DNA from: Picochlorum sp. SENEW3
Lineage: Eukaryota
Assembly: GCA_034226945.1 (NCBI GenBank)
Contig: CP120453.1
Location: 1,550,001 to 1,577,656 of the forward strand
Direction of reading: 5' to 3'
DNA length: 27,656 nucleotides
Shown here: piece by piece, positions 1,581 through 27,656 of the stretch
Layout: every line of letters begins with the position of its first letter
Numbering within the stretch: position 1 is the first letter of the stretch
Position numbers and translations under genes: made by a program
Notes under the pieces: generated by a model
What the model was told of the DNA's origin: nothing
The model's database searches: none
Seen by the model: only the letters and a program-made list of their open reading frames with translations

Positions 1581-2255
<675 letters not shown>

Positions 2256-4903: not shown

Positions 4904-5179
4904 CTTTTCAGATAGAACAAGATCTTAATCATCATCATGGAAACAAAAATAATAAACTTAATGCATCGAATACCATAGTGATGTCGCAATGAGCAAATGA
5001 TCCATTTGCTCTCAAGCAAAAGGCCTTCTTTGATTGAGATTGATATCAAAATATTATGGTCCAGTCTCCTTGCCCTGGAGAGAAAACAAATATATAGTCC
5101 GGTGCATTCTTACACATAGTGCGAGTCTGAGTTGAAAGACAGGCAGACTGCTGGAATCGAGGCATACCAAGAATTCCTC

Positions 5180-6425: not shown

Positions 6426-6461
6426 AAATTGTAGTATAGCAGGATTGTAGGAAAGGGAAGC

Positions 6462-7223
6462 ATGGAAGAACAACAACAACAACCAGAGTGTAGCATGTCG
6501 AACTTGGTCAGCCAAGGGGCAGAGGCGGTATGTCAACACTGGACCATGTCGTCTATTTTTTGATACACACATGATATGAATATTGCCATGCAGAGAGTCT
6601 GGGAGGTTCGTGAGCTGAACATGCCGGCCATTCGGAAGCACCGATTTTCCAAATCGTACCGTTTGGCAGAATTGGACCAACAACTGACCGTGACAAGGCT
6701 ACGACAGGAAGTGAGATCTCTTCTGAGGGCAAGAAAGCTGGGAATCAAGACACCAACGCTGTACAGGGTGGATCTGGCGAATAGCAACATCATCATGGAA
6801 AAGATCCATGGCATGACGCTCAAGCAGGCTCTGCTGCAAGATGCATTGCTCGATATGGCTGCAAAACGCCGCATATTAAAATCTTTGGGGTCTATGGTTG
6901 CAAAGTTACATGATGGAGATATAATTCACGGAGATTTGACGACGAGCAACGTGATGATGTCTGGTGCATCTGGGGACAACAAGCATGCCACCCTGTACTT
7001 GATTGACTTTGGATTGAGCCAATTTTCGGCCCTCTCGGAAGATAAAGCAGTCGACTTGTACGTTATGGAGCGTTCGTTTAATAGTGCTCACCCAATAGAT
7101 GGCGAGGAATTGTTCGCCGAGTTCATGACATCATACAGACGGTCATCCAGGGCCTGGTGTAGCACACTGAACAAACTCGCCGAGGTCAGAATGCGCGGAC
7201 GAAAGCGGTCAATGGTCGGTTGA
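6462..7223 (+). CDS. BUD32: KEOPS complex kinase Bud32/TP53RK; intron 6528-6593
   Basis: SQGAEA|RVW, KHRFSKSYR, IIHGDLTTSN, LIDFGL, EDKAVDLYVMER, C-terminal VRMRGRKRSMVG. Confidence 0.96.
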
Positions 7224-7237
7224 GAAATACAATATAT

Positions 7238-8161: not shown

Positions 8162-8229
8162 CCTCAGGACAATGTGCTTGTTGCCACGACAATTGATACC
8201 CTCAGTCCTTTCTTTCCCTCATTATCAAT

Positions 8230-8253
8230 TATGTATGTATGTATGTATGTATG
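8230..8253. repeat. (TATG)n microsatellite in the REX4/mS33 divergent intergenic region
   Basis: About 6 tandem TATG units read directly. Confidence 0.9.
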
Positions 8254-8377
8254 AAATTTGATTTGCAATCGACATTGCCTTCATAAATGCATGCACGGTT
8301 TGCAATTTATTCTATTTATTTACAGAGATTTACCGCACATTGGTTTGATACGCACATCGCCGCGAAGTAGCCTCTAC

Positions 8378-8398
8378 ACATACATACATACATACATA
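8378..8398. repeat. (CATA)n microsatellite, inverted relative to 8230-8253
   Basis: About 5 tandem CATA units read directly. Confidence 0.9.
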
Positions 8399-8435
8399 TG
8401 TATTAGGTTCAATTCTGGCGAAGAAGATTGCAGGC

Positions 8436-9007
8436 ATGTCGTTTCCATGCCGTCGTCGGATTCTGAGCGACTTCTCGGGGTGTTTCGCGCTTGCAAGACT
8501 GTCGAATCTGGGTGCCTCCGTGTCCGATGGCACCGTATACAGTGTTATGAGTAGAATATTTTCGAATAGCAAAGAGCCGTTGTTGTCAGAGGCTACGTTG
8601 GTTCGGAGAGTGTCCTCAGTCTCCAACAGGCAGCAGGAAGCTGGGCGTAGTGATAGCGGTGCTCGAAGCGAGACATTAGAAGAGGTGCGAGCAAGGATAT
8701 TTGGACACCATATAGGAGACGGCCTGAGATCAGGCAGAAAGATTCTGGCAAAGCCCCTCATTGGCGACCAGGTAGCATCATACTATCCTGAGGACTGGTT
8801 TGCTGGAGACCCCCTCCTGTTGGATGTAGAAGCTGAAAGGTACGAGTCGCGAGCTTTGTGGCATGGTCTAGGCTACTGTCATCATGGTGGTATCATTGCA
8901 ATGACACATTATTATGCAGGGCAAAACATAAACTGGATCGTCTCAAGAGGCGAGGGAAAGCGCCTCCCAAAAAAGGTGCTGGAAAGCGTTCTGGGAAGAA
9001 CAAATGA
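8436..9007 (+). CDS. MRPS33: Mitochondrial small-subunit ribosomal protein mS33 (Rsm27); intron 8840-8919; start could be 8547
   Basis: RARIFGH..GDGLRSGRKILAKPLIG..VASYYP; after splicing LKRRGKAPPKKGAGKRS. Confidence 0.9.
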
Positions 9008-9066
9008 TCAGGAAAATTCATTGTATGCCATAAATTAATCCTTTAAAAGCAAATTTCATCGATTGA

Positions 9067-10790
9067 ATGGTATTCTTCCTGAACTCGTTCAAATTTGTTG
9101 TTGGAAAGACACGCACCGCCTTCCCTGTCTCAAGGTATACAACAGCGAGATCATATTCCTCCGATTTCAAACAAAGCATTAATATGAATATGGTGAGTGC
9201 AACAGGAATGGATGCCATCCAAGGGTTGGAACCTCGGGCAGTTTGGGAATTTTTTGGCACACTGTCGTCCATTCCTCGGCCTTCGTTTCACGAAGAACGG
9301 TGCGTTTCAAAAGAACACTCCAAGACATGGGAGGGATCGCAAAAGTGATGCTCATTGAATGGATATATGCACGCAGGGTTCTTGAGTGGCTCAAGGAGTT
9401 TGCTCAAAAGCGTGGGCTCACCTGGGACCAAGACAAGGTGGGCAACTTGGTCATTCGCCATCCGGGTACGCAGTCGGGCGTGGAGGCGCCCACCGTCATT
9501 ATTCAGGGACATGTCGACATGGTGACTGAGAAGGACGAAGGGAGTGTCCACGATTTCATGTCAGATCCCATCAAGCTCATTCGGGATGGGGACTGGATCA
9601 CAGCAGATGGCACTACGCTCGGCGCTGATAATGGCCTGGGAGTTGTGACGGCATTGGCTGTTCTTGACACACCCAAAGATAGCAAAGATGTGCTATTGCC
9701 ACCAATCGAAGCTCTTTTCACAGTAGCCGAGGAGACTGGGTTGGTGGGGGCTTTTGAGCTGGATGGGTCAATGTTGACCGGCAAGACATTGCTTAATCTG
9801 GATACAGAAGATTGGCCAGATATTTTCATCGGCTGTGCAGGAGGGGGAGACTCCTTGCTGACCCTTGACATGAAGCAGGAGTATATCCCCAAGGACTCAA
9901 AGACATATGCACTGAAAATATCTGGATTGGCCGGAGGACATTCGGGCCTGAATATTTCAGATGGCAGAGCTAACGCGGTGAAGATTGCTGCGGATCTTCT
10001 GGATCGTATTCACGCCATGCTCCCACATGTGCGGGTATGCAGTTTCACCGGTGGGGACAAGAGAAATGCTTTGCCACGAGAGGCGACACTGACGCTGCAG
10101 CTGAGCGAACCCCAGGCAACCAGTGTTAAAGCAAAGTTGGAAGAATGGAATCAAGAGTACCTCAAGGAATTCGGTTCCAGGGAGCCTGAGATTGCGTTTG
10201 AGTTGACTGCTGCAGCACTGCAGAGCCACACTGTGCTTGCAGAGCAAGACATCGAAGCGTTGACAACGATGCTCCTCAGCCTTCCACATGGTGTCATCAA
10301 GAACAGTCACGCCATGGATGGCCTCGTTGAGACCTCGAACAATGTTGCCTCTGTGAAAATGACTCCTGGGGATGATGATGCAACAAGCAGCGTATGTGTA
10401 GTACAATGCAGCACCCGCAGCAGTATTGGATGTGCTTTAGAACGGGTCAGAAGGACGATTCGTAGGATTGGAGAGGGATGTGGAGCTGACGTGCAACAAA
10501 AGCAGGCGTATCCTGGATGGCAGCCCAACCCCAGTGCCAAGGTGGTGCAATTGTGCAAGGACGCCATCACAAGTACCACTGGCACCACACCAGAGCTGAA
10601 AGCAGTCCATGCTGGCCTAGAGTGCGGAATTTTGGGGGAGCGAATCCCTGGCGTGGAGTGCGTATCGTTCGGACCAACCATCAGGGGTGCGCATTCACCT
10701 GATGAAAGGGTCCAAATCAGCACCGTGGAACCATTTTGGAAGGCTACATTGGCACTTTTGGAACGCCTGGCCACAGTAAGGGTACAATAA
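9067..10790 (+). CDS. pepD: M20 aminoacyl-histidine dipeptidase (PepD-like) with probable organellar presequence; intron 9300-9376
   Basis: IPRPSFHEE, QGHVDMV, TTLGADNG, EETGL, NLDTED, HAGLECG, GAHSPDE. Confidence 0.93.
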
Positions 10791-10800
10791 TAATACTTGC

Positions 10801-11327
10801 TCCTTGTGAGGCACCTCCCAGCGGCGAGGCGCAAGGACTGTGCATGTGGACATTCGAAGGCATCAATGGACCATTATGCCCGAGAATGCCCTATTGCCAA
10901 ACATGTCTACAAGCTCCTCAAACCAGAAAGCATGCTTGCTGGAACAAACAGCCATTTCCAACTCCTCCTTCACAACATATGGAGCAACACATCTCCAAAG
11001 GAAGTCGACGATGCCATATGGACTGAGATTAGTATTATTACCATCAATGCTTTGGATGTGGGCCGTAAAACAGCCTACAGACTCCTCAACCACTCCACCA
11101 CAGAACATCCACCACAGCCACAGGATATCATCAGAAAGGCCAGCCACACAGCAGAGCAGTACTTCTGGGAACTGCTGAAACAACGAAAGCCAAGCTTCCC
11201 TCCACCATCGCCAACAATGAAAGAGTTGCCATTCCTGAAATGGCAACCTGCTAACAGACGTTGGGTGTTGAAGAAACCCCTGGTATGGACTCTGACTAGG
11301 AACAGAACAGCTACACTCAAACAGTGA
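10801..11327 (+). mobile_element. 5'-truncated L1-like non-LTR retrotransposon (ORF2 C-terminus); may extend to 11758
   Basis: CCHC finger CACG-x6-H-x4-CPIA followed by NIW...P...IW...NALDVGRK...A...FW.LL...PFLKW, a pattern I recognise from chlorophyte L1 ORF2 ends. No RT domain and no ATG start. Candidate TSD AATACTTGC at 10792-10800 and 11759-11767. Confidence 0.7.
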
Positions 11328-11897
11328 ACAAGGAAGCGCTTGCCACTTCCTACATAGACCTTAGCATTAAAGAGAGACTAAAGTCAGATTTGCCCGAAGT
11401 ATGATGGCCCAACTGCTCCTGTACGGTTTAGTGGTACCAAAGGTAAAAATTCACAACCTGGAGCAGTCGTCATATGGACGGTCGAGGAAATCTGTTTCAT
11501 TCACTATGCTACACTGGCTCAAACAAAACACTACAGAGAAGTATGTCCAATGGACAATGTACAGGTCAGGAGGTTTTGTATCCCTTTATAAATTTCTCAA
11601 CATTTTATTTAGGGATTTCCTCCTGTGGGGCTTGTATGATTTGGAGGAAATTCGTCATATTTTTCGACTGTGTAATAATCCCCTATAAAAATACATGTAA
11701 TAAATGCAAAAGAATAAATACGTAACCTCGGGTGTTAGAACAAACCAGGTTTACAACAAATACTTGCAAGGCAATCAATCAGTCCTAGAACGAGAGGGAG
11801 GTTGATTGAGGCCGTTTCGTTTCGCAACGGTAATAAGAGTACGGAAAAGAATAAATATATTTATAATTTGGATGGTAGGCTTTCGGTGTGACTGGGA

Positions 11898-13901
11898 ATG
11901 AGAGGACGTGTCTTTGGTGCTGGTCGAAGCCTTCTGTGGTCGCTGTCCTTTGAAAAGCAGAGGGACGTTGTGCTGAGCCGATGCACATTTTCGTCCTACA
12001 CTTCAGCATCGAGCAGTGCAAGTGAGAAGAAATGGGCTTCTTGGTCTTTGGGAGCCCTCTGTGCAGGCCTGGGAACATTTGTATGGGGAGCCTCTGGCAA
12101 ATCCGAGTGTGCCATTCCCATTGGAGAGAATGGTGCAACAGCGCCGGCGGTGCAAGTCGATGGCTGTGATACATTCGATCACGTCATTCTTGGAGGAGGG
12201 ACCGCTGGATGTGTGATTGCATATTTGCTGGGGAAATGGGTGGATGATCAAAAGATCAATGCCAATGTTCTTCTGGTGGATGGTGGACCTGGATTTGAGA
12301 AGGCAAACCCGGATCTGCTGGCGTGGTATGATATGTGGGGTGAGTTTGGAAAAGTGCACGAATCCCAATATGCGGGAGATGGCACCAATAGGACATCGGT
12401 GTACCCAATCACCCCATCGGACCACAGGGGACTCGGAGGCTGTGGAGCGCATGATACCAGGATTTACTACTTGCCGAGCGAGAAGGAGCAGCACGAATAT
12501 GCCAAGACATTTGGTTGGAGCCTCGGTGAGCTGAGGGAATACATGCAGACCGCAATGAATCTGGAGCCAGCCATCAAGGCATGCCCCCATGGTGAGGACT
12601 ACTTTGATCTGGTGATCAAGGAGCTCTCGGAAAGGTCTGGGCTGAAGAGGCTTCCCGATGACAGATTTTATGGCAATGTAGTTGCAGACTCTGTAGCATA
12701 TTTCGATGTTGGCGGGTATGCACTATCCAACACTCGGGGAATCAGATGGTCGCCAGCAATGTTGGTCAATAGCGCAGATGATTCGATCCGACCTAAATCC
12801 CTCAAAGTGCTGACAGGAGCAGAGATTGAAGCAATTGATTTTCGAAAGGGAGATCCGACAGTGGTCGAGGGTGTGAGGACCAAGGTTGATGGGGAACCCA
12901 AGCACATTCGTCTTGCTGATAAGGGAAGCGTCACCCTCTGTGCTGGTTCGATAGGGAACTCTGCAATCTTGCAAAGATCGGGAGTGGGAGATCCGCAGAC
13001 TTTGAGGCAAGTGGGGATCGAGCCGGTCTTACCGCATCCCGAAGTGGGCCATGGGGTTGATCACGAAGAGATTGCAGTTCAGTATGCACCTCCCGCCAAG
13101 TGGCCTGGTGGCACCATGCCTGCTGGTGGTGTCATGGGCTGGGCACTGGGTATTTTTAAAAGTCTACCGGGACTCGAACAAATTATGCAAGCGCATTTCA
13201 GCATCGCTGGACCTCCGTATGACGATGAGGTGACTGTTGTTGGAACGCCCAACAATACCAAGCCAGACCAACACAAAGGATACAGAGTACAGATCCAATC
13301 ACCATCTTCTGATGAGGCAGCAGTTCTCAAATACGAATACAGTTCACATGAGCGAGAGGTATTCCTCAAGGGGCTCCGAGAAATGGTCGGGATGTTTGAG
13401 AAACTGAAGGAGGCAGGCTTGGTGGGCGAACGGGTAGCTCCACCGCGTGATATTGACTTGGACGACGACAATGCTCTATGGTCATGGATCCATGATAACA
13501 AGCACACGGCGTACCATTGGCTTGGGACGTGCAAGGCGGGTCTCAGGGGAAAAGTCACACCAGGCTCTGTAGTAGATGAGACCTTTCGCCTCAGGACAGG
13601 AACTGACCAAGAAAAAGTTGTTGATAATCTGTTCCTGTCGTCTGCCGCCGTACTACCCTTTCCACCGACGGCAAACCCCCATATAACGATCCAGTCGTTC
13701 GCTGTGGCGGAGGCCTGGCAAGCATTCCAGCACATGGCAAAGATTCGTGGAATTCACGCACAGTTGCCACAAGAGCTGCAGACCGCCAGGTCGCAATTGA
13801 AAAGTGATAAAGGACAGCTCCGGGTACGGGGACCTGGAGAAGAGAAGCCTAACATTGGCCAGGTGGCCAAGAGATATTTTGATATGCATCAGCAGCAGTA
13901 A
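11898..13901 (+). CDS. GMC-family flavoprotein oxidoreductase, choline-oxidase-like, with mitochondrial-type presequence and hydrophobic segment; intronless
   Basis: ILGGGTAG dinucleotide fold, GLGGCGAHD, LCAGSIGNSAILQRSGVG, VDHEE, TAYHWLGTC, ANPHIT. Confidence 0.88.
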   Translation: MRGRVFGAGRSLLWSLSFEKQRDVVLSRCTFSSYTSASSSASEKKWASWSLGALCAGLGTFVWGASGKSECAIPIGENGATAPAVQVDGCDTFDHVILGGGTAGCVIAYLLGKWVDDQKINANVLLVDGGPGFEKANPDLLAWYDMWGEFGKVHESQYAGDGTNRTSVYPITPSDHRGLGGCGAHDTRIYYLPSEKEQHEYAKTFGWSLGELREYMQTAMNLEPAIKACPHGEDYFDLVIKELSERSGLKRLPDDRFYGNVVADSVAYFDVGGYALSNTRGIRWSPAMLVNSADDSIRPKSLKVLTGAEIEAIDFRKGDPTVVEGVRTKVDGEPKHIRLADKGSVTLCAGSIGNSAILQRSGVGDPQTLRQVGIEPVLPHPEVGHGVDHEEIAVQYAPPAKWPGGTMPAGGVMGWALGIFKSLPGLEQIMQAHFSIAGPPYDDEVTVVGTPNNTKPDQHKGYRVQIQSPSSDEAAVLKYEYSSHEREVFLKGLREMVGMFEKLKEAGLVGERVAPPRDIDLDDDNALWSWIHDNKHTAYHWLGTCKAGLRGKVTPGSVVDETFRLRTGTDQEKVVDNLFLSSAAVLPFPPTANPHITIQSFAVAEAWQAFQHMAKIRGIHAQLPQELQTARSQLKSDKGQLRVRGPGEEKPNIGQVAKRYFDMHQQQ

Positions 13902-13981
13902 GTGCACCTTGAACAATTAAGCATGTCTTCTTTTTGCATTTCAGAGGATGTACAATGCAATTCATTCATTCATTTTTTGTG

Positions 13982-13986
13982 TGTAA
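13982..13986 (+). promoter_or_regulatory. Candidate TGTAA chlorophyte polyadenylation signal of the GMC gene
   Basis: TGTAA 80 nt after the stop codon; UGUAA is the established green-algal poly(A) signal. Confidence 0.45.
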
Positions 13987-14019
13987 CTAAAATGATGACA
14001 TTTTAGTTTCATACTCTGG

Positions 14020-15310
14020 TTATGAGGTCACATCTCGTTGCCAGAAAGCACGCTCACATTTATTTTTCCCACAACGGCGTACTTTTCAGCGCTTGTGAAG
14101 CCCCATGCCAATTGGGGGAGTTTCCAATTTGGCATGGCAGCCTCAGCAGTACTGGCCACTTGGGAATTCATCAATCTCAAATCTATGAATCCCTCCAAGA
14201 TCCGAAAATCCCATTGCTCTATCCAGTTATCTATGATGTATCCCTGCAGGATGAATCAAGCAGTGCTGAGATCCAACTTGAGCTTCACTTCAGAGAAGTT
14301 TGTGTGCATTATATCCAGAAGAGTCTTATCAACAAGTGATTCTGGCTTGACAGTATTTTAAATATTGAAAACGATGCGAAATCGCTTGCTTGGATAGAAT
14401 CAGGATCAGCTTCGACCTCAGGTAAGGTGACTAGATTCCATTGTATTAGGAATGAAACAACACCACTGCCGAAGCAGGTCCTTGAGGGCTCGAAAGCAGA
14501 TCCTTTCTGTACCGTGTTTTCCTGAATCAATCAAGGCGTTCCCAAACACAACTACAGTCCTGCTCTGAGTCTCCCTGTTCTTTGTCACACAGATCCGTTC
14601 AACCATGGAGTCCAGCATTCGTTGCGTCTTTGTGTACACAGAGAACCTTTGCCTTCGGAAACAGTTCTGGGAAAAAAGGCATAAACTGTTTTCAGGTGGC
14701 TATTATTCTCCTTACATAATGCAAGCACATCTACTGCTGTTCTGACTTTTCTGGTGGGTGCCTCCTGTTTCCATGCACCTGTGCCTGACCTGCTCTGCGT
14801 CCATACCTGTTCCAATGCCTTTCGCTTGAGGACGCCCGCACGTGATCGCATCTCGTGGTTGCTCAAGCTCACCGTCCCGAAAGGTTTGTAGTCTCCATGT
14901 CGCTTGTCCTCCTCACAAAGTATCCTCATTTTGCCCTGATCCAGCTTGATGCCCACAGATGATGACTAGAGGGGGCCTGGATCAAAAACCCATGCGTTGT
15001 CAGGCGATTTGGCCAGCAGTTCTTTTGCTCTGTCCAGGTTCCCTCGACTGGGAGTATTCAGGGACTTTTGTGTACGTGTTCCTGCTTTATTTGTTGGTTT
15101 TCGTTTTCTCGTTTTTTCCTTTGAAGACTCATTCTCCTTCTGTGCCTCCTTGTCTTTTCTCCTTTCCTTTTTTTCCTCCTCATCGGCTTCAATTTCTGCG
15201 TCCGTCTTCAGATGATAATATTGCAGCGACACGTCAACACCGTCAGTGGACAGTTGATCTCCAAACAGCCACTGGTGTCCATCTTGGCACTTCCTGACTT
15301 TGATATAAAC
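14020..15310 (-). pseudogene. Fanzor1 (TnpB-related RNA-guided RuvC endonuclease) pseudogene, N-terminally truncated
   Basis: Reconstructed order: FGDQLSTDGVDVS (TDG 15247-15239); WVFDPG (RuvC-I D 14983-14981); FRRQRFSVYTKTQRMLDSMV; VVVFGNA...G; EIDEF (RuvC-II E 14169-14167); C*GC...CGKNKC (Cys 14148, 14139, 14073, 14058); FWQRDV (RuvC-III D 14034-14032). Lesions: stops at 14968, 14145, 14088, 14022; frameshift at the A6 run 14672-14677; ~272-bp insertion. Confidence 0.88.
14179..14450. other. ~272-bp insertion of unknown origin interrupting the Fanzor gene just before RuvC-II
   Basis: Removing it fuses LLRQWCCFI to EIDEF in frame; boundaries uncertain by a few bases. Confidence 0.6.
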
Positions 15311-15512
15311 CCTTGCCCTTTGTATGGTCAGTCGGGAGTCATTGGGCAGGCGCCTGCTACCGGGGAACTGACCATGACTTTGCTGCGTGGAATGCTGACA
15401 TTAAATGAGATTTTTATTAGAAATTGAATTCCAAAGGTGGTGGACATTGTATAGCGTTGTCAATCTAACCCGATCGATGTAGTTGTTCTGTTGCAAACAG
15501 ACCCTGTCCATC

Positions 15513-16200
15513 ATGCCTCGTTGCACAAACTGCGGTCGACAACGTGAAAAAAATAAAACCAGGTTTTACAAAGGCCGCCGAGTATGCCATCAGTGTATGA
15601 GCTCTCTTTTGCGGAGTGAAGGTTGGGCTCTATCACCAACCCTTGCGGGGCGAGGCAACAAGGGTGGAAAGCAGAGTGGTGACAATGGTGATCATGGTGG
15701 TGATGAAAATTCCAAAGACAGAGTCCCCTCGATCGCTGATGGTGCTGACGGTGACACCTCGAGTGAGGGTGTCACCCTGGACTCTGTCGAATTACCTCCT
15801 TCTATGTGGGATGGTGGCCGTGCGATCCAGTGGCTAGAAGCATACAAACGAGAGCTAACAATCCAGCAGCAGGAGAACCAACAATATGAGATGCTGTAGA
15901 CAACTGTTTACACTGTCTCAAGAGGGATGAACACCGCGTACGAGTCTTGGAAAATACTGTGGTGGCGATCCGGCCCATACATGTAACTGCATTTTGTCTG
16001 CAGGGATGAAAATGCCACGACAGCGGGCCGTTCACATCTGCTGCGACTGGACAGTACTTGAAGTGGCGGTCACACATCTCACATGCGCATGACATTGACA
16101 GATGAGCGGATACAGCCACCCATGAATGCATGCCGGAATGGCTCCTTCCGCTTTTGGTCCATTGGGATCTTCCAAATATTTTGGTGGATTAGAAGGCAGT
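15513..16200 (+). pseudogene. Degraded Cys-rich gene, possibly the N-terminal/CxC part of a KDZ (Kyakuja-Dileera-Zisupton) transposase
   Basis: N-terminal CTNC-x17-CHQC and an acidic linker; in another frame from ~15976, HTCNC...RQRAVHICCDWTVLEVAVTHLTC...HP*MHAGMAPSAF with several stops. Confidence 0.35.
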
Positions 16201-19042
16201 CGGGAGGCCCCTGCGGCAGTAGTGATACTGAGAAGTTGTTCAGTTTGTCAGAGGAATCCTGGCAACTTCCCCTACCCTATATACCCCAAGCCATCATCTG
16301 TCCAACAGAACCAGGACGGTGGCCATCAGGTTCTTTGATGCATATTGTCTGAGCATTGGCGTATTCCGTGGCATATTTGGAGAATATGGCATGGATTTGT
16401 CGAAAACAAAAGATTCATGGATCGGAACATGAGATTCTCTGTAATTGAACACAATAAAAAATTGTTACCTTTCAGATTTAACGACAATTTTAAGGAGGAG
16501 TTGAGTCAAAGTGAGTGAGTGACTTATTCTACTATCCAACGGGTCGACGGACCGGACCACTGTGCATATCCGTGGTGGTGCCAAAAATCTCCACGCTGGT
16601 GTCACTTTTTTGTGCAGAACTGTCCACTTTTGTCGCGTGGTCGCCTTTTTTTATTGTGTCTTTTTACGGACGGAGAAGTAGTACTAGGCGTGATGTCTCC
16701 GGTCGAGTCGATGATAGGAGCGGACAGTTCAGTTTTAGTGACCGTGGTTCTACTAGCGAGCTCAAATAGCAAGCAAGCTCTCTTTTCCTCTGCCCCATAT
16801 ATTGTTGCCGGGCAGCACTATTACTCCTCCTCTGTGTACATATCGCTGTTACATGGTTTATGTGTCCACAGTTTTGCGAGCCGACGACAGATACTCCTCT
16901 CCTCTCAACACGCAAGCGTGGCATTCGTACCAACACAGACACACAACCATTCGCTTTCCTTGAGGTTTGGAGTAGTCTGCCGTCTCCTTGATTTGATTCA
17001 TCTATATTGTGAAATAACAATCAACGATCGAATCATACAGAAACCCACCATAAGAAGGTCCTGGACGTCGGGGCATGTTGCCAAGGCGTTCCACTGGAAC
17101 GATCGGGGACAGGTATCTCTCTGTGGACGTGGCCATCGATGGGTAGCATTCTTGATTTATAGTATAAATCTATGAATACTAGTAATCGTTCTTCTTGCCC
17201 CTGGGGAGCGACCCTCTCTCCAGGCCTCCTTGGCCCAACAGCTGTGACGCGAGAGGATTTCACGATGTAGGACATTCGACACGGTGTCCACAGGAATACA
17301 CCATCTGCGGCACGTATAATGTCATATTTGATTAGAAGTCATATATTTAATGCCAAATAATCTGTTTTCTTCTCTCTCTCTCGACCGAGGGTGTGGGACC
17401 ACCTCGGTCGTTGCAATGCCCAGGGCTCGTGGCTGTGGGTCGGGCTGGCATAGCCAAGGCCTTTTCAACCACCCTGAATGTTGAAATACAACAGAATAGG
17501 TTTTGTAGGCGTATGAATGAATACGTTATCCGCCTCGCATGATTTGTCGTGGTGGTGGATTCTGACGGCAGAATTCTCTCTCCTCATCCGTCTGTCTGGA
17601 AGATTATTTATCGGTCCGACAGGACACTGGACCGGCTCAATACACGTTCGCTATGGGCTGTTTCCCCTTTCTCTCCCTAAATGACCACAATAAAAAAACA
17701 GGACCTTGAGAATCGAACCCAGTCCGCAGTCATATTTTTTTATTCATTATTTTACGGAATGCAAAACGTCTTGTGCGTAGCATCTTCGGTGCAACCGATC
17801 GGTAGACCGGACTATGGTGCAAATCCATGGGCCTTGTGTAGGCACTCTCCCCTCCTCTCCTCCTCTCGAGAGGTGTATCACTTCTTTTTCTCGCACTCTG
17901 TTTCAGTGGTCGCCCTCCTTGTTTCCTTTATTGTCACTGGTTACAGACGGACACGAGCTGTAGGCATGGTGCACACGGAAGAATGTCTGGTTCGTGTTGG
18001 ACACAAAGCAGAAGAAGCCAGTCACCTCGTTCTAGATGGCATTCTGACAAATTCACACCAACTCTCCCAGCATTCAATGCTCGTCATTCATTTTGTTGTC
18101 TATCTTTTTGTACGAGGATCTACGACGTGGTGGTATTGTTTCCGTAAAGCCAGGCGCGTTTTTTCTCTTGCTGTTGCTGTGTCGTGCAAAATTCCAAACA
18201 CATGATGTGCATGTTTGCTTGTGCGTCTCCACAAGCAAGGGGGGATGCTGGACGACCCCCTCAATTACCTGTATCAGCGTCTGGTCCACTGTTTTGATAT
18301 CTCATGATATAACAATAGAGGACACTGGACTGCGATGGATGGGGCCGATTCCGACACGTTGCTGTCGTTGGCTTGTTGTTGGTGTGATTGTGGTCTGTCG
18401 ATTCTCACAGGCAGATGAGAGACACAGCGCCAGTCCCTTCCAAGAACACACACTCTCTCTCTATGTTTTATCCTTCTTCTATTGAGTGTTGGACTGCTCT
18501 ATCTTCTGGTAGTAGTAGTGGTGGTGGTGGTGGTGGACCCTATATATATTCACACGTTGTCCTACTTACCATACGATAGAATAGTTCGATTAGAACACAT
18601 TTTTTGATCATTCGTGTTATTCTTTTATCTTCTGAATCCACCAATCAGTGTGTGTGTGGAGATATGAATGGAGCTGTTTCGCTGTTTTGCTTGTTGAGTC
18701 TGTGGATAGCGGGTGAGCACACATTGTGTGCTATTGCTACTCCTGTCTTTGTTGTTTCTACATCTGGAGCAGCAATGGCAGTGATTATTGTTCTTTGTTT
18801 TTAGTAGTAGTAGTAGTAGTACTAAACCAATAGTAATACAACTATTACTATTGGTTGTAGAAAAGAAGACGAACAAAAGGTGTAGCTCTTCAAAGGTCTT
18901 TTTTATCCTTCTCCACAGGGAGGGTAGATAGACTGAAGGCATCGGTCCGACGGCGTTTCGGACCGGTGAGGTCGGCCTTTTTTTTCTTTTTTCGGGCGTG
19001 TCCGTCCGTAAATGAGGACAATAAAAATGTATGACCACGACA

Positions 19043-19260
19043 AAGTAACCTGCAAGTATCCAGCAAGTAACCGGCAAGTAACCGGCAAGTAACCGACAAG
19101 TAACCTGCAAGTAACCGGCAAGTATCCGGCAAGTAACCGGCAAGTAACCGACAAGTAACCGGCAAGTAACCGGCAAGTAACCGGCAAGTATCCGGCAAGT
19201 AACCGGCAAGTAACCGGCAAGTAACCAGCAAGTAACCAGCAAGTAACCAGCAAATAACCT
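19043..19260 (+). repeat. 11-bp minisatellite (AAGTAACCGGC), ~20 copies
   Basis: 19 full units plus one partial; variants AAGTATCCGGC, AAGTAACCGAC, AAGTAACCAGC, AAGTAACCTGC. Confidence 0.97.
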
Positions 19261-19687
19261 TTTGGTCGGGTTTTTTTATTGTACTCTATTCCGGAAGGCA
19301 ATCTGGCGACAGGAAGACTTTCCGGTCGCCCACAGGACACGACCACATAAAACCGCCTCAACAACAGATAGCAGCCATCAGCGCAAGATGAGAGCCTTGC
19401 GCTCCCTGTGGGACATGTATGATGTGGGATTTGCGGGGCTACTATATATACTAATAATTCATCCAAGAAGCCAGTAAGATCATTTGTCACACATTCAGGA
19501 AGACCAACCCACGCGAGGAGTGTGCTCACGCATTCGAGACAACGACGCGAATCTCCCTCAAACATACAGTCACGTCGACTTTGGATTTGTCTGCTTTCGT
19601 GACTTGTATTCAACACTGTGTTAGAACACAGTCATCAGAAGAAAGAGGCCTCAACATCGCGGCTCCGGAATGGTTGTGACTGTCATT

Positions 19688-21700
19688 GTTGTCATGACAT
19701 TCCCGTGGAACGGTTGTTGTTGTTGGAACCCTGTTGTGCTCCGTGGTGGTCGGCCATTCGCTCTTATGACTAATAAATAATTTTAAACCAACAATGACGC
19801 TCCCCTATGCCCACAAAGGAACGATTCTGGGCGTCTTCGTCCCAACCGTCGCGACGCGATCGGAGTGGACCAACGTCGGTTGGTGAGGTCCATTCGACTC
19901 GGCGCCGATGTAAATAGCCCTTAATAATGTTATATTTGTCCAATCATCCAATACCAACAACCAATACTGCTATGCACTGCAGGTGAGTGGTGGCAAGGGT
20001 ATGGGATCACCGAGGCCACATGATGCGTCGTGTGCAAGAAGGTGGCTGAGTGCGTTTTCTGTTCAGGGCCACATCTGCGGTGCTGCTACCAAGTGTTCTA
20101 TGTATCCAAAGAAACTATGGAAGGTGCCAAATGGTCCATTTACACAGCAGGGACAATGGATGAGGTCGGGCTTCTAATTTTTTCCAGGCGTGTCCGTCGG
20201 ACGCGTCCGTCAATGAGGACAATAAAAAAGGATGACCATCAAAACCACACGCTTTAACCGCTCGGCCACACTCAGCGTGCTTTTTTTTCATCTCCCATCA
20301 CAACGGAGTTTTGACCGGTGGTGGTAGTTTCTTTTCGATGTTGGTTTCCCTTCTCCGATGGAAGACCCCTTCTGATGGGAGCGCCTGGATATGTGGAGCA
20401 CACAGCAGTCAGGAGGAGAGCTGATGAGCAGTCTTTCTTTGCTGTAAAAACACGACGAGATCTTCCCCATTCAAAGACGCTGCGCAGTTCTATACTACTA
20501 TTACTATCCTAATTGCAACTCATGAAGTCTATGTAAGTAAGTAAGTACGCGTGCCTCGCATGATGATGATACTGAGAGATGCTCCAGCATTGCAGCTGCT
20601 GCAATGTTCCTCTGGTGCTTATCTCAGCTTGCTTGTTGTTGTTGTTGTGAAGACGACGATTTCTTTTCATTTTATTCTTGTTTCATGTCTTCTATTTATT
20701 CTTTTTATATTTACTACTACTATTATACCTCTCTCTATCTCATATGTTGTCTGTGTAGGGTAGCTCCTTGTTCTTCTTCTTGTGTGCATGAGACTTGTGT
20801 GCTTTGTTCTGTTCTGTTATTATTGGTTGTTATCGTTGCTCGTGTCGATTGTTGTGCATGTTATTATCATTATTACTACTACTACTATTATGAGATATCT
20901 ACTTTCTCCTTTTGATTGCTTTGCTTCTTTGTTGGTGTGTTGTCTCATGTTCTGTAGCAGCAGCAGCAGTAGTAACAGTAATAGTAGTAGTAGTAGTGGT
21001 GGTGTATGCTGGATGGTTGTTGATTTATTGTATTCTTATTGTTGTTGTTGTGTAGGGTGGCTGTTTTCTACACCCTTGCTTGGTTTGGTTGGAATGTTTT
21101 TGGTGGTGGTCCCAGTCAAGTCAAGGGGTGATGGGAAGATCGCCATTCTTGTTGTTCCGAGCTGCTCCCTCTTCTTCAGACATGTGGCAGCAGACCACTG
21201 TTTGTTTTGCACTGGGTGTGCGACGCTTTTTTTTAATGATGGGTGTTTATTATTATTATTATTATTGGTATTCTTCTTACTTACTTACTTACTTAATATT
21301 GTGTCCTTCTGTTGATGCTGCTGTTGCTGTTGTGAAGAAGAAGACAGAGATTCTTTTCATTCATGCATAGCATAGCATAGTATAGATTGTTGTTGTGTCA
21401 TTATGATTATTATGAGATTTTCATCTTTTGATTTTGGTTTTGCTTTGCTTCTTTTGTGTTGGTTGCTGTTGTTGTTGTCTTCTCTTGTTGTAGTAGTAGT
21501 AGGAGTAGGAGGAGGAGGAGGAGGAGCAGTAGTAGTAGCAGAGCTTGTGGTGTGCCGTGTCTTTTGTTGTTGTTGTTGTCGTTGTATATATAGTATAGGT
21601 GGTTATTATACTACTACTTATTCTTCTTGATATTGTATTGTATATTCTGGTTCTTTTGGTGTTGTTTTTGGATGTTTTTTTGGTTGGTGTGTTTTTTTGG
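19688..21700 (+). repeat. Segmental repeat unit, copy 1 (complex head plus GT-rich simple-repeat tail)
   Basis: Colinear similarity to 25783-27375 from GTCATGACATTCCCGTGG through TTTTTTGGTTGGTGTGTTTTTTTGGT. Confidence 0.85.
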
Positions 21701-21759
21701 TAAAGGGGGGTCCATAACCTCAAACTTTTGGTTTCAGCCATAACTGGTGATCTTTGGTA

Positions 21760-22596
21760 CACGATTGTGGGCGCGTGAGAGCTTTTTTCTCTAGTCTGTC
21801 GCTTTCAGGCACCTCATATGGATGTAATTCAAAAAGACCTTTCTCGGATTTCCCAGATTTTGCGTGACCGATCATCCAGGGAGGGGTGTGTCTGTGAGGC
21901 ACTTTTGCAACGCTTGGGGCACGATTGTGGCCGCCTGAGGGCTCTGCTCCTTGGTTTGTCGCTTTCAGGCACCTCATATGGATGTAATTCAAAAAGACCT
22001 TTCTCGGATTTCCCAGATTTTGCGTGACCGATCATCCAGGGAGGGGTGTGTCTGTGAGGCACTTTTGCAATGCTTGGGGCACGATTGTGGCCGCCTGAGG
22101 GCTCTGCTCCTTGGTTTGTCGCTTTCAGGCACCTCATATGGATGTAATTCAAAAAGACCTTTCTCGGATTTCCCAGATTTTGCGTGACCGGTCATCCAGG
22201 GAGGGGTGTGTCTGTGAGGCACTTTTGCAATGCTTGGGGCACGATTGTGGCCGCCTGAGGGCTCTGCTCCTTGGTTTGTCGCTTTCAGGCACCTCATATG
22301 GATGTAATTCAAAAAGACCTTTCTCGGATTTCCCAGATTGTGCGCGACCGGTCATCCAGGGAGGGGTGTGTCTGTGAGGCACTTTTGCAACGCTTGGGGC
22401 ACGATTGTGGCCGCCTGAGAGCTCTGCTCCTTGGTTTGTCGCTTTCAGGCACCTCATATGGATGTAATTCAAAAAGACCTTTCTCGGATTTCCCAGATTG
22501 TGCGCGACCGGTCATCCAGGGAGGGGTGTGTCTCTGTGAGGCACTTTTGCAACGCTTGGGGCACGATTGTGGCCGCCTGAGAGCTCTGCTCCTTGG
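21760..22596 (+). repeat. 160-bp tandem satellite, subfamily A, ~5.2 near-identical copies
   Basis: GCTTTCAGGCACCTCATATGG recurs at 21801, 21961, 22121, 22281, 22441. Confidence 0.98.
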
Positions 22597-22627
22597 TAAA
22601 GGGGTGTTCAGAACCTCAAACTTTTGG

Positions 22628-22975
22628 CTTGGGGTCACTTTTCTGGCCGCGTGAGACATCTTCCTCTGCGTCTGTCGCATTTAGCAGGCTTGTATATATA
22701 ATATCTCAAATGCCCTCTCCCGGATTCGCCATACTCGCGACGACCGACCAGATAGCGAGGGGTGGTTGAGAAGACCAGTGCAACGCCCTTGGGGTCACTT
22801 TTCTGGTCGCGTGAGACATCTTCCTCTGGGTCTGTCGCTTTCAGCAGGCTTGTATATCTAATATCTCAAATGCCCTCTCCCGGATTTGCCATACTCGCGA
22901 CGACCGACCAGATAGCGAGGGGTGTGTCTGGGAGTCACTTTGCAACGCTTGGGATACGAGTGTGGGCACGTGAGC
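22628..22975 (+). repeat. 160-bp tandem satellite, diverged subfamily B, ~2.2 copies
   Basis: CTTGGGGTCACTTTTCTGG at 22628 and 22788, CTTGGG at 22948; shares TGTCGCTTTCAG, CGGATTT, GAGGGGTGTGTCTG and TTTGCAACGCTTGGG with subfamily A. Confidence 0.85.
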
Positions 22976-23421
22976 ACTATATCGTCGCGTCTATGGTGCT
23001 ACTAAGCCTTATATGTATCCGAAAAACATATGCAAGGAGCCAGATGGAGCATTTACATGGCGAGGACCCACCTTGGCCATCGCATGTTTTTGTAATGGTC
23101 CAGGAGTCAAAGCACAAGCAGTTGCCTCAGACTCGAAGGTTGAGAGCTTTTACTCGTGGTCTGCCGACTTTAGGCATTTCATATGCACTTCAGGAGAAGA
23201 AACAGCAGTGTCAAGAGAGTTCCCATTATCCCTTGCCGTCATTCGGAGTAGTAGTTCGCGTCGCATTCACCACCAATGCTCACAACAGAATTCGCAACAA
23301 GCTCTGGGCAAAGCAACGCGTGTGACTTTGATTGTTGGAGGGAGAAATATATATCAATATAAGATAGTAGAGGGTGCGAACCAACTTGACAAGAGTTCGT
23401 GGCTGTTTGGCACTGTTGTAC

Positions 23422-24680
23422 TTGTTGTTGACATGACATTCCCGTGGAACGGTTGTTGTTGGAACCCTGTTGTGCTCCGTGGTGGTCAGTCGTCGGCTCT
23501 TTCGACTGATATATAATTTTAAAGCAAGAATGACGCTCCTTCATGTCCATGGAGGACGACTCCAGGCCTGTGCTAGTCCCAACCGTCGCGACGCGAATGG
23601 AATCGACGACCGTCGGTTGGCGTCGAAACTGACGCGGTGACGACGGAGAGACCCTCAATGCTGTTTTAATTATCCATTTATTCAATATTAACCAATATGG
23701 AGCACCGTTTCTTCGGCAGTGCGTGGCACCGCCTGGGCCAACGCGATGTCATGGTTCTGTGGAAGGCGGTGTCAACTTGGTCTGGAACAGTCGAGAGATA
23801 GCCGCAGTATGCTGAGTATGCACAACAACCATAGGAAGGGACACCTTATACTCTAACCTATTCGGGCTGGTTCCTCCTTGTGTCGTGAGGACAACTCCAC
23901 ATGCTTTGCTCGTTCTCTCAACCCTTCGGTCCGACAAAGCCCCAGACCGTTGGCATGCGACCCGTAGGGGAGTCGGGTCTCTTTGGTCGTGCTCTGGTGT
24001 GGTGAATGTCCGTAAACAAACACAATAAAAAAGTTGAACCAAGTTGAACTCCGGTCTCCTCGGACGTAGTGTTCGTCCGTGAATGAGGACAATAAAAAAT
24101 GACGACCATGGGCCAGAGAGCCCACACGCTTTCACCGCTCGGCCACACTCATCGTGCTTTTTTCATCTCCCATCACAAGGAAGGTTTGACCGAGAGGATA
24201 TCATCGTGATGTTTTCTTATTCACAGCTCTCCCCATCCAAGATCTAGTCTGATGGGGGAAAAGCCTGGGTGTGGAGCACACACAGCAAAGCCAGGAGGAA
24301 GAGGGGAGAGCTAAGGAGCAGTGTTTAAAACACGACGAGATCTTCCCCAAAGAAGCGTCGCAATTGTATATATATAGTACTATCCTACTATGCTCATTGC
24401 AACACATGTAGTCTAAGTAAGACAACGTGCCATGCATACTGATGACACTGAGATAGTTGCTCCAGCATTAGTGCAACGTTACTCCAGTGCTTGCCTCACC
24501 TTGCTTGCTTGTTGTTGTTGTTGTTGTTGTTCTTGTTGTGAAACAAAGACAATACTTTTTTCATTTTTTCTTGTCTCATGTCTTTTCATATACTTCTTAT
24601 TGTACCTCTCTCTACCTCATATCTTGTCTGTGAGTCTATCTCCAGGTTCCTATCTTCTTCTTGTGTGTGTGTCTTTGTGT
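23422..24680 (+). repeat. Segmental repeat unit, copy 2 (partial, with a different middle ~23640-24070)
   Basis: 23422-23620 matches 19688-19880; 24075-24680 matches 20205-20780 and 26441-27035. Confidence 0.85.
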
Positions 24681-24684
24681 TTCC

Positions 24685-25205
24685 GAGTGGGTCGGGGACT
24701 TTTCGCCGACGGGACGCGGGATGGTCGCCTTCCGGCCCGGTCCGATCGGGCCTCCGACCGGACCTCGCGATCGATCTGAACAACGGTTAGGGCAATGCTC
24801 CTCGCGGAGCGCTTAGGGTTTTCGCGACGGCCCGTCGGGCCCCGAGGCCGCCCCCGCCCCGGGTTTCCACCCCCTCTCCGGCCCGTACACTTTTTCACAT
24901 CCATACGGTTGGCTGGGGCCGGCCGGCGATCCCTGATTGTCCCCCACCCAGCCTCCAGCGTGTTTTGAAAATTTTCTGTCAGCGCACGGATGGCCACCTG
25001 CGCCCCCTCTGGCACGCGTGCGCCCCATTCGGCCCGCCCTGATCGCTGTGGCACATCCCCACCACCGCATGGATGCTAGATCGCCCGCCAGCAGGGGGCG
25101 GGGGGCGACTCACGAAGCCAACAGAAGGGATTTGCACCGCCACCCTCCTCCCTGCTGCTGGGACATGGTTTTCCCCCGCGCGAGGGGGTATTTTTGGGGG
25201 GGAGA
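24685..25205. other. GC/CpG-rich non-coding island with many short inverted repeats and two TTAGGG motifs
   Basis: Abrupt compositional shift; TTAGGG at ~24787 and ~24813 (the latter a telo-box AAACCCTA on the minus strand); no credible ORF. Confidence 0.6.
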
Positions 25206-25420
25206 GATGTGACATTCGAGCATCTTGTATGGGTAGGTAACCCAGGGATCCACGAGAAGGAATGCTTGATTGCTGTGTTTCAGTCACCCCCCTCCACAGC
25301 AGCAGCATTGCCTTCTGCCATCAAATACCACCTCCTCCCAAGCCTTGGAGCCTTTCCAGTGCACCCGAGTGTCCCCGTCGAGCTCGCTTTGATATTTATA
25401 TTACGATTGGGATCATTGAC

Positions 25421-27375
25421 AACCAGCAGCACGACAAGGAGGTCCTGGACGGCGGGGGTTTGTTGCGAGTGTTGTCATGACATTCCCGTGGGACAGGTTG
25501 TTTGGACGCTCTTGCGCTCCGTGATTGTCGCCCATCGGCTCTTTAGACTGGAACATATTTCTAAAGCAAGAATGCCGCTCCTTCATGCCCATGGACAGAC
25601 GATTCCGGGCGTGTTCGTCCCAACCGTCGCGACGCGATCGGAATCGACGACCATTCGGTTGGTGAGATCCATTCGACTCGACACCTGCTGTACTGAAATG
25701 GCTCTTAAGTATTGTTCTGAGATAATTGAAAACCAGAAGCACGACAAGGAGGTCCTCGACGGCTGGGTCCGTTGCGAGTGTTGTTGTCATGACATTCCCG
25801 TGGGACGGGTTGTTGTTGGAACGCTGTTGCGCTCCGTGGTGGTCGGCCATTCGATCATTTGACTCATATGTAATTTAAACGTAAGAATGACGCTGCATCA
25901 TGCCCACAAAGGAACGATTCTGGGCGTGTTCGTCCCAACCGTCGCGACGCGATCGGAGTGGACCAACGTCGGTTGGTGAGATCCATTCGACGCGGCGCTG
26001 ACGTTAAAAACCCTTAAATATGTTTTGACTCGTTTTTCCAATCATCCATTACCAACAACCAATGCTATGCACTGCCGGTGGGTGGCAAGGGCGTGGGACC
26101 ACCGAGGCCACATGATGTGTGTTGTCATGGCTCGGCAACGAGCCTCGCTCAGCGAGGGTATCAGGGTCGGAAGGTACCCTAGAGAGGATACAAGGAGGAA
26201 GAGGCTGCAAGGCGGGTCTTATAGATCACCTCCCGGCGAGCTTCCAGCGCTTTTTTCACTCAATGTCTGTTGTCGCATGTGTGCAAGAAGGTGAGTACGT
26301 TTTCTGGTTTGGGCCACATCTGCCGTCCTACCAAGTGTTCTATGTATCCAAACAAACTATCCAAGGTGCCAAATGGTGCATTTATATAGCAAGGACAGCA
26401 GCGATGAGGTCAGCCATGTTTTTTCTTTTTCAGGCGTGTCCGTCCGTAAATGAGGACAATAAAAAAGGACGACCATGGGCCAGAGAGCCCACCCGCTTTC
26501 ACCGCTCGGCCACACTCAGCGTGCCTTTTTTATCTCCCATCACAAGGGAGGTTTGACCGAGCGGATATCATCGTGATGTTTATTCACAGCTCTCCCCATC
26601 CAAGACCTCGTCTGATGGGGAAAAAAGCCTGGGTGTGGAGCACACAGCGAAGCCAGGAGGAAGAAGAGGGGAGAGCTGTGGAGCAGTCTTTAAACACGAC
26701 GACATCTTCCCCAAAGAAGGGTCGCAATTGTTGTATCTATATATTACTATCCTACTATGCTCATTACAACACATGAAGTGTAAGTAAGACAATGTGCCAT
26801 GCATACTGATGATACTGAGATGATTGCTCCAGCATTAGTGCAACGTTACTCTAGTGCTTGCTGTTGTTGTGAAACAAAGACAATACTTTTCTCGTTCTTT
26901 CTCGTTTCATTTCATGTCTTTTATTTATTCATTGTTTTCATATATTATACTACTATTACTATTACATCTCTATCTCTCTCTCATGTGTTGTCTGTGAGTC
27001 TCTCTATCTCCAGGTGTTCTCTTCTCTTCTTGTGTGTTTGGTTGTGTTGTGTCCTGTTCCTGTTATTGTTGGTTGCTTGGTCGTGTCGATTGTTGCTGTG
27101 TATGTTCTTATCATTATCATTATCATTATCATTATCAATGCGGAGTATTATGAGCTATTTTCTTTCGATTGCTTTGCGTCGTCTTTGTTAGGGGGTCTGG
27201 TCTGCTGTTTATTTTGGTGTAGTAGGAGGAGCAGATCTTGTTGTGTGCCGTGTCTTTTTTGTCCTTGTTGCTGTATATATATAGGTGCTTATTATACTAC
27301 TTTTTCTTCTTTCATATGTTGTATATTTTTGTTGTTTTGTTGTTTTTTTGGTTGGTGTGTTTTTTTGGTTAGGGT
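25421..27375 (+). repeat. Segmental repeat unit, copy 3, whose ~310-bp head is tandemly duplicated (25421-25730, 25731-26040)
   Basis: AACCAG(C/A)AGCACGACAAGGAGGTCCT at 25421 and 25731; the remainder is colinear with copy 1. Confidence 0.85.
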
Positions 27376-27656
27376 ATTTTGGTCTTGTTGGTGGTGTTTT
27401 TTCTTGGCTTTATTTTTGATTTTTTGGATATTTTCTTATTTTTGGGTAGTTTGTATATTATTTAATTTAGAAATCGTGTTTATTTTTCTGCGAATGCGGT
27501 GGAAGTGGGTGCAATATGTGGATATATACCCTCATTACCCTCCTGCCAAGGAACGACGGTATGCACAGGGTATAGGGTATAGGGAGCAATACGTAACTGA
27601 ACGAAGTACTGATTGTGTTTGTTAGTCGCTTTTTTGGAATTTTTTGGAATTTTTTT

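Follow-up and report, generated by a model that had tools for sequence, protein, structure and literature searches.

In budding yeast, the sites of the general regulatory factors Abf1, Reb1 and Tbf1, together with the X-core, form subtelomeric clusters and also occur at a few promoters near A tracts, where they have a boundary or silencer role, and these factors have hundreds of interior sites; CTCF, an animal protein, has tens of thousands of sites. The SPE2/PfSIP2 system of Plasmodium falciparum is built on a 16-bp motif of two repeats with strict spacing, present in hundreds of copies on chromosome ends in conserved position and orientation, with ~5% internal sites and a proposed role in end biology (PMC2829057, as far as its available text goes). 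Human subtelomeres have CTCF/cohesin sites <3 kb from the terminal tract at many ends, and such sites also mark the borders of subtelomeric repeats (accessible part of PMC4032850), and in Chlamydomonas a short conserved sequence, the subtelomeric Spacer, marks the border of the terminal domain at most ends (PMC8287924, from the portion available). For trebouxiophyte algae, a literature search that took in few subscription papers turned up no account of a subtelomeric site bound in a sequence-specific way.

The stretch of DNA that we analysed (27,656 nucleotides; hereafter the window) is a chromosome end from the 13.85-Mb genome of a green alga, Picochlorum sp. SENEW3, which has the Picochlorum-type telomere unit CCCTATA. 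Picochlorum telomeres lack TTTAGGG (PMC6141220), and CCCTATA is the unit predicted for them in the available part of PMC8287931; it is seen in the window as 2.4 units of GGGTATA at 27568–27584 (+). The assembled telomeric tracts consist of only ~17 bp of mutated repeat. After the telomere units, positions 27585–27609 carry what we take to be a nanopore adapter. Two 160-bp satellite arrays (21760–22924) are common to other ends, and a broken Fanzor (TnpB-like) gene (14028–15306, −) at the edge of the gene-dense part has no tie to the motif described below. No Argonaute was found in this lineage.

Between 16439 and 26464 the window holds ten two-arm matches (≤2 mismatches) to this motif, on both strands, where 0.03 would be expected by chance and 0 of 100 shuffles reached ten; the same scan found none in 1–16438. 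An earlier note on this DNA had described a bipartite motif of fixed spacing, which proved real but incomplete: the motif is 31 bp long and has three arms, CCGTAA-N6-ACAATAAAAAA-N4-GACC, with fixed spacing and an A run of length 6. The third arm, which had been missed, stands in fixed register, with G, A, C and C at frequencies of 0.78, 0.85, 0.92 and 0.88 among 63 unique seeds picked by the first two arms only. The note was correct that the motif occurs on both strands and not in the gene-dense part, that its arms are not mutual inverted repeats (they are not palindromic by sequence), and that seven named N6 spacers are present.

The innermost copy (16439–16469, +; TTGAAC lineage) is the left half of a convergent pair and is faced over a 169-bp gap by a copy of the AAAGAC lineage (16639–16669, −); the equivalent gap at other ends consists of 18–46 bp of 8/9-bp repeats. 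A copy with the spacer ATGACC (17675–17705, +) has flanks unlike those of any other copy, and the degenerate copy facing it (17728–17757, −) is 30 instead of 31 bp long, the missing base having been noticed before; in the gap between them lies the decamer GGTTCGATTC (17710–17719, −), which we take to be B-box-like. A decayed copy follows (17926–17946, −), with arms one and two (2 mismatches) and the third arm off register, and then a convergent pair of ATGAGG (19006–19036, +) and TAGAGT (19264–19294, −) lineage copies, left and right of an 11-bp tandem array of 19.7 copies (19043–19259) that fills their gap. Towards the telomere there are an ATGAGG-lineage copy facing the chromosome end (20207–20237, +), a direct pair at 67 bp spacing (ACAAAC lineage, 24010–24040, then ATGAGG lineage, 24077–24107, both +), and the outermost, telomere-facing copy (26444–26474, +), 1.14 kb from the telomere.

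Genome-wide, there were 147 matches to the motif against 2 for a control, far above background, and clustering at chromosome ends, a pattern that the earlier note had considered, was borne out. Exact two-arm matches lie <60 kb from contig ends, ~1/10 of the genome, in 71 of 75 cases (~95%), and 21 of the 24 contig ends carry the motif and hold 146 of 155 collected sites, with up to 12 sites clustered per chromosome end. The copy nearest the end junction faces that junction in 20 of 22 cases, which are not 20 independent events since the end-facing copies lie within one duplicated terminal module; 18 of these 20 copies sit 1.0–2.2 kb from the junction, and at the ends C7R and C9R the copy nearest the junction is only a 5-nt-spacer variant. 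Neighbouring copies form 29 convergent and 31 divergent pairs, the convergent ones with no helical phasing in their gaps, and direct pairs at 67, 77/78 and 89 bp fit one helical phase, these representing two ancestral pairs only. Direct reading covered ~0.78 Mb of the 13.85 Mb, and weak interior sites were assessed by pattern searches rather than a genome-wide profile search. ORFs near the interior and subtelomeric copies belonged to no Pfam family and had atlas leads of <0.9 or none, and in the window and 15 loci neither Rfam nor tRNA scans found anything.

Most copies stem from subtelomeric duplication: two linked context families hold 129 of the 138 sites with full flanks, so the suggestion that segmental duplication accounts for the ATGAGG copies alone does not stand. 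The upstream flank travels with the spacer, the downstream flanks differ, and the N6 spacer marks a few duplicated lineages. It does not vary freely, as had been supposed; within duplicated lineages it changed at 6 of 216 positions versus 18 of 756 for the arms, and its identity between lineages is 44%, versus 25% for the flanks. Because N6 and the arms are equally conserved within lineages, homogenisation could account for part of the recent conservation. Change within lineages amounted to 2.4% in the arms, 6.1% in the flanks (p 5e-5) and 5.8% in the spacers (p 0.005). In nine contexts with unalignable flanks the three arms were 0.89, 0.98 and 0.90 identical, values inflated by the fact that sites were found via their arms, against 0.44 for N6, 0.30 for N4 and 0.25 for the flanks; the arms are thus better kept than the flanks and the N4 spacer, which argues against a single decayed repeat. 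A search with flanks only returned 206 loci, comprising 155 with an intact motif, 5 with a damaged one and 46 others, by eye mostly flank repeats or mis-registered matches.

A single-copy intergenic site (G000:C8:142399) is kept in a syntenic metagenome contig of a related species, L143, with 20 of 21 arm bases, between neighbour genes that are 83–88% identical and in flanks whose aligned bases agree at 32 of 66 positions on one side and 63 of 111 on the other; this sole orthologous footprint was retrieved with the exact motif pattern. Downstream of the C8 site, at a distance of 150 nt, there is a conserved 100-nt non-coding block in which no fold signal was found (z −1.25). There are four further single-copy intergenic sites (control 0), and the third arm is weak or absent in four of the five. 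L142 and L145 contain the full motif within repeat-rich DNA that has no match in G000.

Judging from sequence, we put at roughly 55% the probability that the motif serves as a binding site for a sequence-specific host protein, one that would organise the chromatin of subtelomeres as well as a few promoters, in the manner of SPE2/PfSIP2. A host-encoded DNA-binding protein or complex would touch three patches of the helix, one per arm, at fixed spacing. Its loading sites would form clusters that reach 12 members at a chromosome end; most convergent pairs would lie towards the genes, and a single site oriented to the end would lie 1–2 kb from the telomere. The protein may be a general regulatory factor that holds the local DNA open at ends, may set a subtelomeric chromatin border, tether ends together, or both, and would also bind about five single-copy intergenic sites beside ordinary genes. 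Subtelomeric duplication would generate the copy number, and selection for binding would keep the arms. In one Mutator-like family, two copies terminate just upstream of a motif, at distances of 13 and 5 bp, which is weakly (n=2) what would be expected of a site in open chromatin. The earlier note had likewise proposed a selected binding site with a subtelomeric role; the distribution and arm conservation support this, and it is from these, with the sequence and orientation, that we infer binding, the loading of the protein and its roles.

Like SPE2, the element has several parts at fixed spacing, a share of internal sites near 5% and end-clustered copies of conserved position and orientation, these copies not being independent; unlike SPE2, as the available text of PMC2829057 presents it, it has 31 bp, three unlike arms, convergent pairs and no sequence likeness, and it is not SPE2/PfSIP2 proper, as its consensus has no GTGCA-type half-site with 4-bp spacing. 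It resembles subtelomeric CTCF/cohesin sites in its place close to the terminal tract and at borders of subtelomeric repeats but is nearly confined to ends, and it shares end clusters, few promoter sites and adjoining A tracts with budding-yeast factor sites but has other sequences, and the Orc4 of this alga is not yeast-type. The Chlamydomonas Spacer is likewise short and conserved at most ends but differs, in the portion of PMC8287924 available, in being a contiguous 14-mer, one per end, that transcribes centromere-ward; by eye there was no match.

It is also possible, at rather low probability, that the motif is an snRNA-type promoter, a USE variant recognised by SNAPc or one of its relatives, driving non-coding RNA telomere-ward (TERRA-like) and across the convergent gaps, where the T run of the facing copy would end Pol III transcripts. 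The left arm CCGTAA resembles the green-algal snRNA USEs CCCRTAA and ACCCATAA (PMC8287931, accessible text), Chlamydomonas Spacers serve as promoters (PMC8287924, same portion), and the orientation of copies toward the chromosome end and the conserved block downstream of the C8 site would suit such a promoter. B-box-like decamers occur in two convergent gaps, with three more in L145; at ends we counted 15 in 539 kb, close to a rough chance estimate of 8 and mostly from one duplicated family, which makes them no more than a lead. However, the genome's own USE is TGGCCCATAA in four of four snRNA genes (U1, U2, U5 and U6), whose promoters, scored with the motif matrix, come out at −14 to −21 bits and lack the other two arms in register; there is a single SNAPC3 gene, and no Rfam RNA adjoins any scanned site. 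We therefore rejected membership of the type 3 snRNA promoters, the motif differing from the genome's USE and having, at the scanned sites, no small RNA gene 60–70 bp downstream.

An unlikely reading would make the motif the end, or the site bound by the enzyme, of a mobile element or a site-specific recombinase that shuffles subtelomeric modules, whether it acts in trans or is now a relic. The inverted arrangements of neighbouring pairs and the joint movement of spacer and upstream flank past differing downstream flanks would fit this, as would 8–12-bp tandem duplications directly past GACC in 15 of the 43 different downstream flanks (12% among 60-mers drawn at random) and copies at tandem-amplification junctions (a 5.9-kb array on C3, and C7:465 kb). 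Against it, no target-site duplications were found among the 29 convergent pairs or in 121 divergent combinations, where a lone 6-bp match was off register, homology-block ends showed no enrichment at the motif (8 of 97 versus 5.6% expected, p 0.18), a single-copy site has been kept at its locus across species, and viral and prokaryote sequence collections gave 0 matches. Nor was the motif found at the termini of the TEs examined, being absent from ten Mutator-like loci, which have other TIRs, and from ten loci of intact Fanzor elements, so that a Fanzor element end was rejected. The sole tyrosine-recombinase-like gene (a weak match) has no motif within its 10-kb locus, and with non-palindromic arms, where such a site has inverted arms around a 6–8-bp core, and breakpoints at p 0.18 a tyrosine-recombinase site was rejected too. 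A copy at C3:607780 beside a SWIM/MULE transposase had suggested a Mutator TIR, but the true ends of that family differ; one Mutator-like copy has a 9-bp duplication 13 bp ahead of a motif. As autonomous Mutator-like elements share no terminus with it and target-site duplications are lacking, a terminal inverted repeat of a Mutator-like or MITE DNA transposon was dismissed, and the transposase or recombinase site that had been proposed is left with neither such duplications nor a cognate enzyme.

Quite improbable is a replication origin defined by sequence (an ORC site) and dense at ends, whose convergent pairs would load the double helicase. The motif is similar to ORC footprints in its length and A/T-rich core, its inverted pairs lie 18–84 bp apart, and origin motifs in Yarrowia can differ from the budding-yeast ACS (bioRxiv 10.64898/2026.03.10.710760, available part). 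Yet there is no interior excess (of 213 matches, 145 fall within the fetched ends, and the remaining 68 compare with 66 for the control), weak scores in 232 kb of interior DNA equal those of controls, and Orc4 aligns with human Orc4 through the winged-helix domain with indels of ≤3 residues and no yeast-type insertion; this comparison used human and fly Orc4, the alignment with the yeast protein having missed that region. With pattern searches showing no sites every few tens of kb, though weak degenerate ones may exist, and no Orc4 insertion helix, a yeast-type origin is unsupported, and the origin element suggested before has too few interior copies. We also give little credence to a functionless motif, a piece of old subtelomeric duplicates that gene conversion has kept alike; the two linked families and the conservation of N6 within lineages favour it, but in nine contexts and at the single-copy orthologous site, which contradicts it, three separate arms persist while the intervening and surrounding bases have diverged to near background. 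The centromere determinant also proposed earlier can be all but dismissed: a few interior copies adjoin mobile or virus-like DNA (C3:607780, C8:628675), but ~95% of exact matches lie at ends, interior sites are within short intergenic gaps and not one per chromosome as a point centromere element would be, and Picochlorum Hi-C, in the available part of PMC11092101, has centromeres and telomeres clustering separately.

Returning to a subtelomeric protein-binding element, we regard as a long shot the further idea that the 31-bp element and its putative protein took over part of the telomere's work from 1–2 kb inside the end, in a lineage with such short assembled tracts and no Argonaute found. 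This work might be telomerase recruitment or the capping, clustering or silencing of ends, and a sequence-defined subtelomeric control element would then replace a long repeat tract. With the 31-bp sequence as a probe, a single pull-down could test how ends are protected and clustered in Picochlorum, and artificial chromosomes in this biotechnology alga could need the element as one of their parts.

The window forms the right-hand end of contig C1 in an assembly of 13.85 Mb and 14 contigs, 12 of them chromosome-sized; compact green-algal genes fill its bases 1–13,901, and beyond these lies a gene-free mosaic of modules common to other contig ends. All 10 matches to the two-arm pattern at up to two mismatches fell at 16439–26464 (0.03 expected), bearing out the earlier note's repeated fixed-spacing motif in the gene-free domain. 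The two arms of its bipartite CCGTAA-N6 pattern are real but incomplete, as alignment of 113 copies from other contig ends revealed a third, GACC, in fixed register (0.78–0.92 per base among 63 unique seeds picked on the first two arms only). The full element, (T)CYGTAA-N6-ACAATAAAAAA-N4-GACC, spans 31 bp and is present in the window as nine full and two degenerate copies. Rather than varying freely, as had been proposed, N6 stays linked to the upstream flank and tags a few duplicated lineages (ATGARG, AAAGAC, TTGAAC, ACAAAC, ATGGGA, and TAGART).

Exact two-arm matches numbered 75 across the genome (reversed control 0), rising to 213 when two mismatches were allowed (control 66); the three-arm pattern, at one mismatch, matched 147 times (control 2). 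Most of the exact matches (71/75) lie ≤60 kb from a contig end, as do 146 of the 155 sites collected from fetched DNA, which occupy 21 of 24 contig ends and face outward in 96 cases and inward in 50. A site was present in the fetched stretch at 22 of 23 end junctions, and the nearest one faced the chromosome end at 20 of these 22 (18 of the 20 at 1.0–2.2 kb); because the terminal modules are mutually duplicated, these counts are not independent and show that one arrangement has been conserved rather than gained separately at each end. Convergent pairs are frequent in the inner clusters; 26 of 29 have gaps of 18–227 bp, many filled with 8–11-bp tandem units, such as the window's 11-bp array. 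Contigs from other runs kept both facing copies at 16469 and 16639, the gap between replaced by 25–26-nt arrays, and may be other chromosome ends of those strains. B-box-like decamers, possibly TFIIIC boundary sites, occur at 17710–17719, in ATGGGA/TTGAAC convergent-pair gaps of this assembly, and in L145, an unrelated motif-bearing contig.

Each of the 23 end junctions (window 27568–27609 and 22 others) consists of 2.4 GGGTATA units followed directly by adapter-like sequence, which we take to be the nanopore ligation adapter; such letters remain in the assembly. The uniform tracts may reflect very short, uniform telomeres or trimming by library preparation or assembly. The same junction and adapter-like sequence occur inside contigs (C1:384208, C10:744494, C6:7530, C12:964750, C4:1822, and C3:1255727), where chromosome ends have probably been mis-joined; at 384 kb, C1 may fuse two separate chromosomes, and the "interior" motif cluster at C1:386 kb, 1.8 kb from such a junction, is probably a joined end. 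GGGTATA units, present at the contig ends, are the telomere motif predicted for Picochlorum in PMC8287931, and a telomerase was found.

The motif itself is real; as to its function, we infer, with a probability of about 0.55, that it is read by a host factor that would open chromatin, border the terminal domain, or tether ends. Judging by known DNA-binding proteins, three conserved patches at fixed spacing over three helical turns would be the footprint of a multi-domain protein or complex.

A promoter for subtelomeric RNA is an unlikely alternative. Algal USEs, the snRNA promoter elements, resemble the left arm (PMC8287931); however, TGGCCCATAA is the element of all four snRNA promoters in this assembly (U1, U2, U5, and U6), which reach only −14 to −21 bits against the motif matrix. 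A single SNAPC3 gene was found, and we rejected the motif as a USE.

A mobile-element or recombinase site is somewhat less probable still. In its favor, tandem duplications just past GACC (15 of 43 distinct flanks, which are not independent, vs. 12% by chance; upstream 8/34) could reflect cutting or fork stalling at the motif, counter to the host-factor reading. A Mutator-like terminus was rejected: these elements have other TIRs, the motif was in 0 of 10 loci, the C3 motif copy that prompted the idea is flank, and a second element copy, on C8, has a 9-bp target duplication immediately before a motif. One such family carries a SWIM transposase and, by eye, a convergent Ulp1-like protease frame (C3:602213–607772, C4:773833–779408, C2:343576–349186, and C8:7846–10880); a second is nested on C4 and C6. 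Intact Fanzor elements lack the motif. Fanzor genes are of two types (window 14028–15306; C10:617506–621250, C3:1210666–1214414, C7:373063–376125, and C7:399475–401877), several being intact 800–1030-aa frames with copies 97–99% identical, and hence recently mobile. No target-site duplications surrounded the motif in 121 divergent and 29 convergent combinations, except one off-register 6-mer, homology-block ends were not enriched at it (8/97, p 0.18), and the viral and prokaryote collections searched gave 0 matches. The single tyrosine-recombinase-like gene (C5:576829–578607; nuclear, 592 aa, with a transit-peptide-like N-terminal extension) is unlinked to the motif, and a tyrosine-recombinase site was rejected. 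A tandem array at C3:6164–~29900 comprises no fewer than four 5.93-kb units, which by eye contain an ABC transporter and a UDP-glucose dehydrogenase-like piece; every unit carries a copy of the motif with a damaged third arm.

A replication origin is less probable than either: interior DNA showed no excess of matches of the kind that a genome-wide origin would give, and Orc4 aligned to human Orc4 without insertion.

Neutrality, slightly less probable again, would have duplication alone account for the copies, and 129 of 138 sites, grouped by any alignable flank, do fall in two of nine contexts. Against neutrality, identity between contexts was 0.89, 0.98, and 0.90 in the arms, 0.44 in N6, 0.30 in N4, and 0.25–0.26 in the flanks. 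Within lineages, with ascertainment biased toward intact arms, differences numbered 18/756 in arms vs. 21/360 in spacers (p 0.005) and 109/1800 in flanks (p 5e-5), N6 alone (6/216) being as stable as the arms. An upstream-flank-only search returned 206 loci, 155 with the motif intact, 5 damaged, and 46 that by eye were chiefly hits in the wrong register or flank repeats of no relation. A centromere element is hardly credible for a motif so clustered at chromosome ends.

Selection on the motif is best supported by sites away from the chromosome ends. A metagenome scan gave 12 loci, nine matching subtelomeres of this assembly (80–98%); L142 and L145 are one sequence found twice, a full motif in repeat-rich DNA without a match in the assembly. 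The remaining locus, L143, corresponds by synteny to C8:142399, an intergenic site present in single copy: neighboring genes are 83–88% identical and flanks share 32/66 and 63/111 aligned bases, while the arms share 20/21. Near it, ~100 nt at C8 ~142130–142230 (L055:5115–5235, minus), upstream of a zinc-finger gene with weak similarity to YABBY, are almost invariant between the two, with no reading frame kept, Rfam match, or fold signal; an RNA or regulatory block of a new kind is possible. Four further single-copy intergenic sites hold the first two arms (C2:329194, C8:632921, C11:131452, and C12:474298; control 0); for most of them, a gene starts no more than a few hundred bases away. The weak C2 site lies 1.9 kb downstream of ORC4 with another gene between (C2:325324–329194), probably a coincidence. 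Two orphan ORFs (821 and 359 aa) at C8:625223–630691 adjoin a motif fragment; they have one distant paralogue on C3 and only a weak HNH/viral lead.

A host factor of this kind has parallels. Yeast general regulatory factors likewise combine end clusters with a handful of promoter-near sites. Plasmodium SPE2, bound by PfSIP2, shares the end clusters of fixed layout and the few promoter-near sites, with about 6% of 777 surveyed sites elsewhere (PMC2829057), and human subtelomeric CTCF sites cluster similarly at ends (PMC4032850). The literature searched, largely outside subscription journals, held no description of the motif, including the available parts of the Chlamydomonas subtelomere (PMC8287924) and Picochlorum Hi-C (PMC11092101) papers, PMC6141220, and PMC12636532. 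A search made without allowing for introns found no Piwi-domain gene in the assembly, which would leave room for a sequence-directed silencer. Though not a member of the SPE2 family or of any tested family, the motif would, by analogy, work like SPE2.
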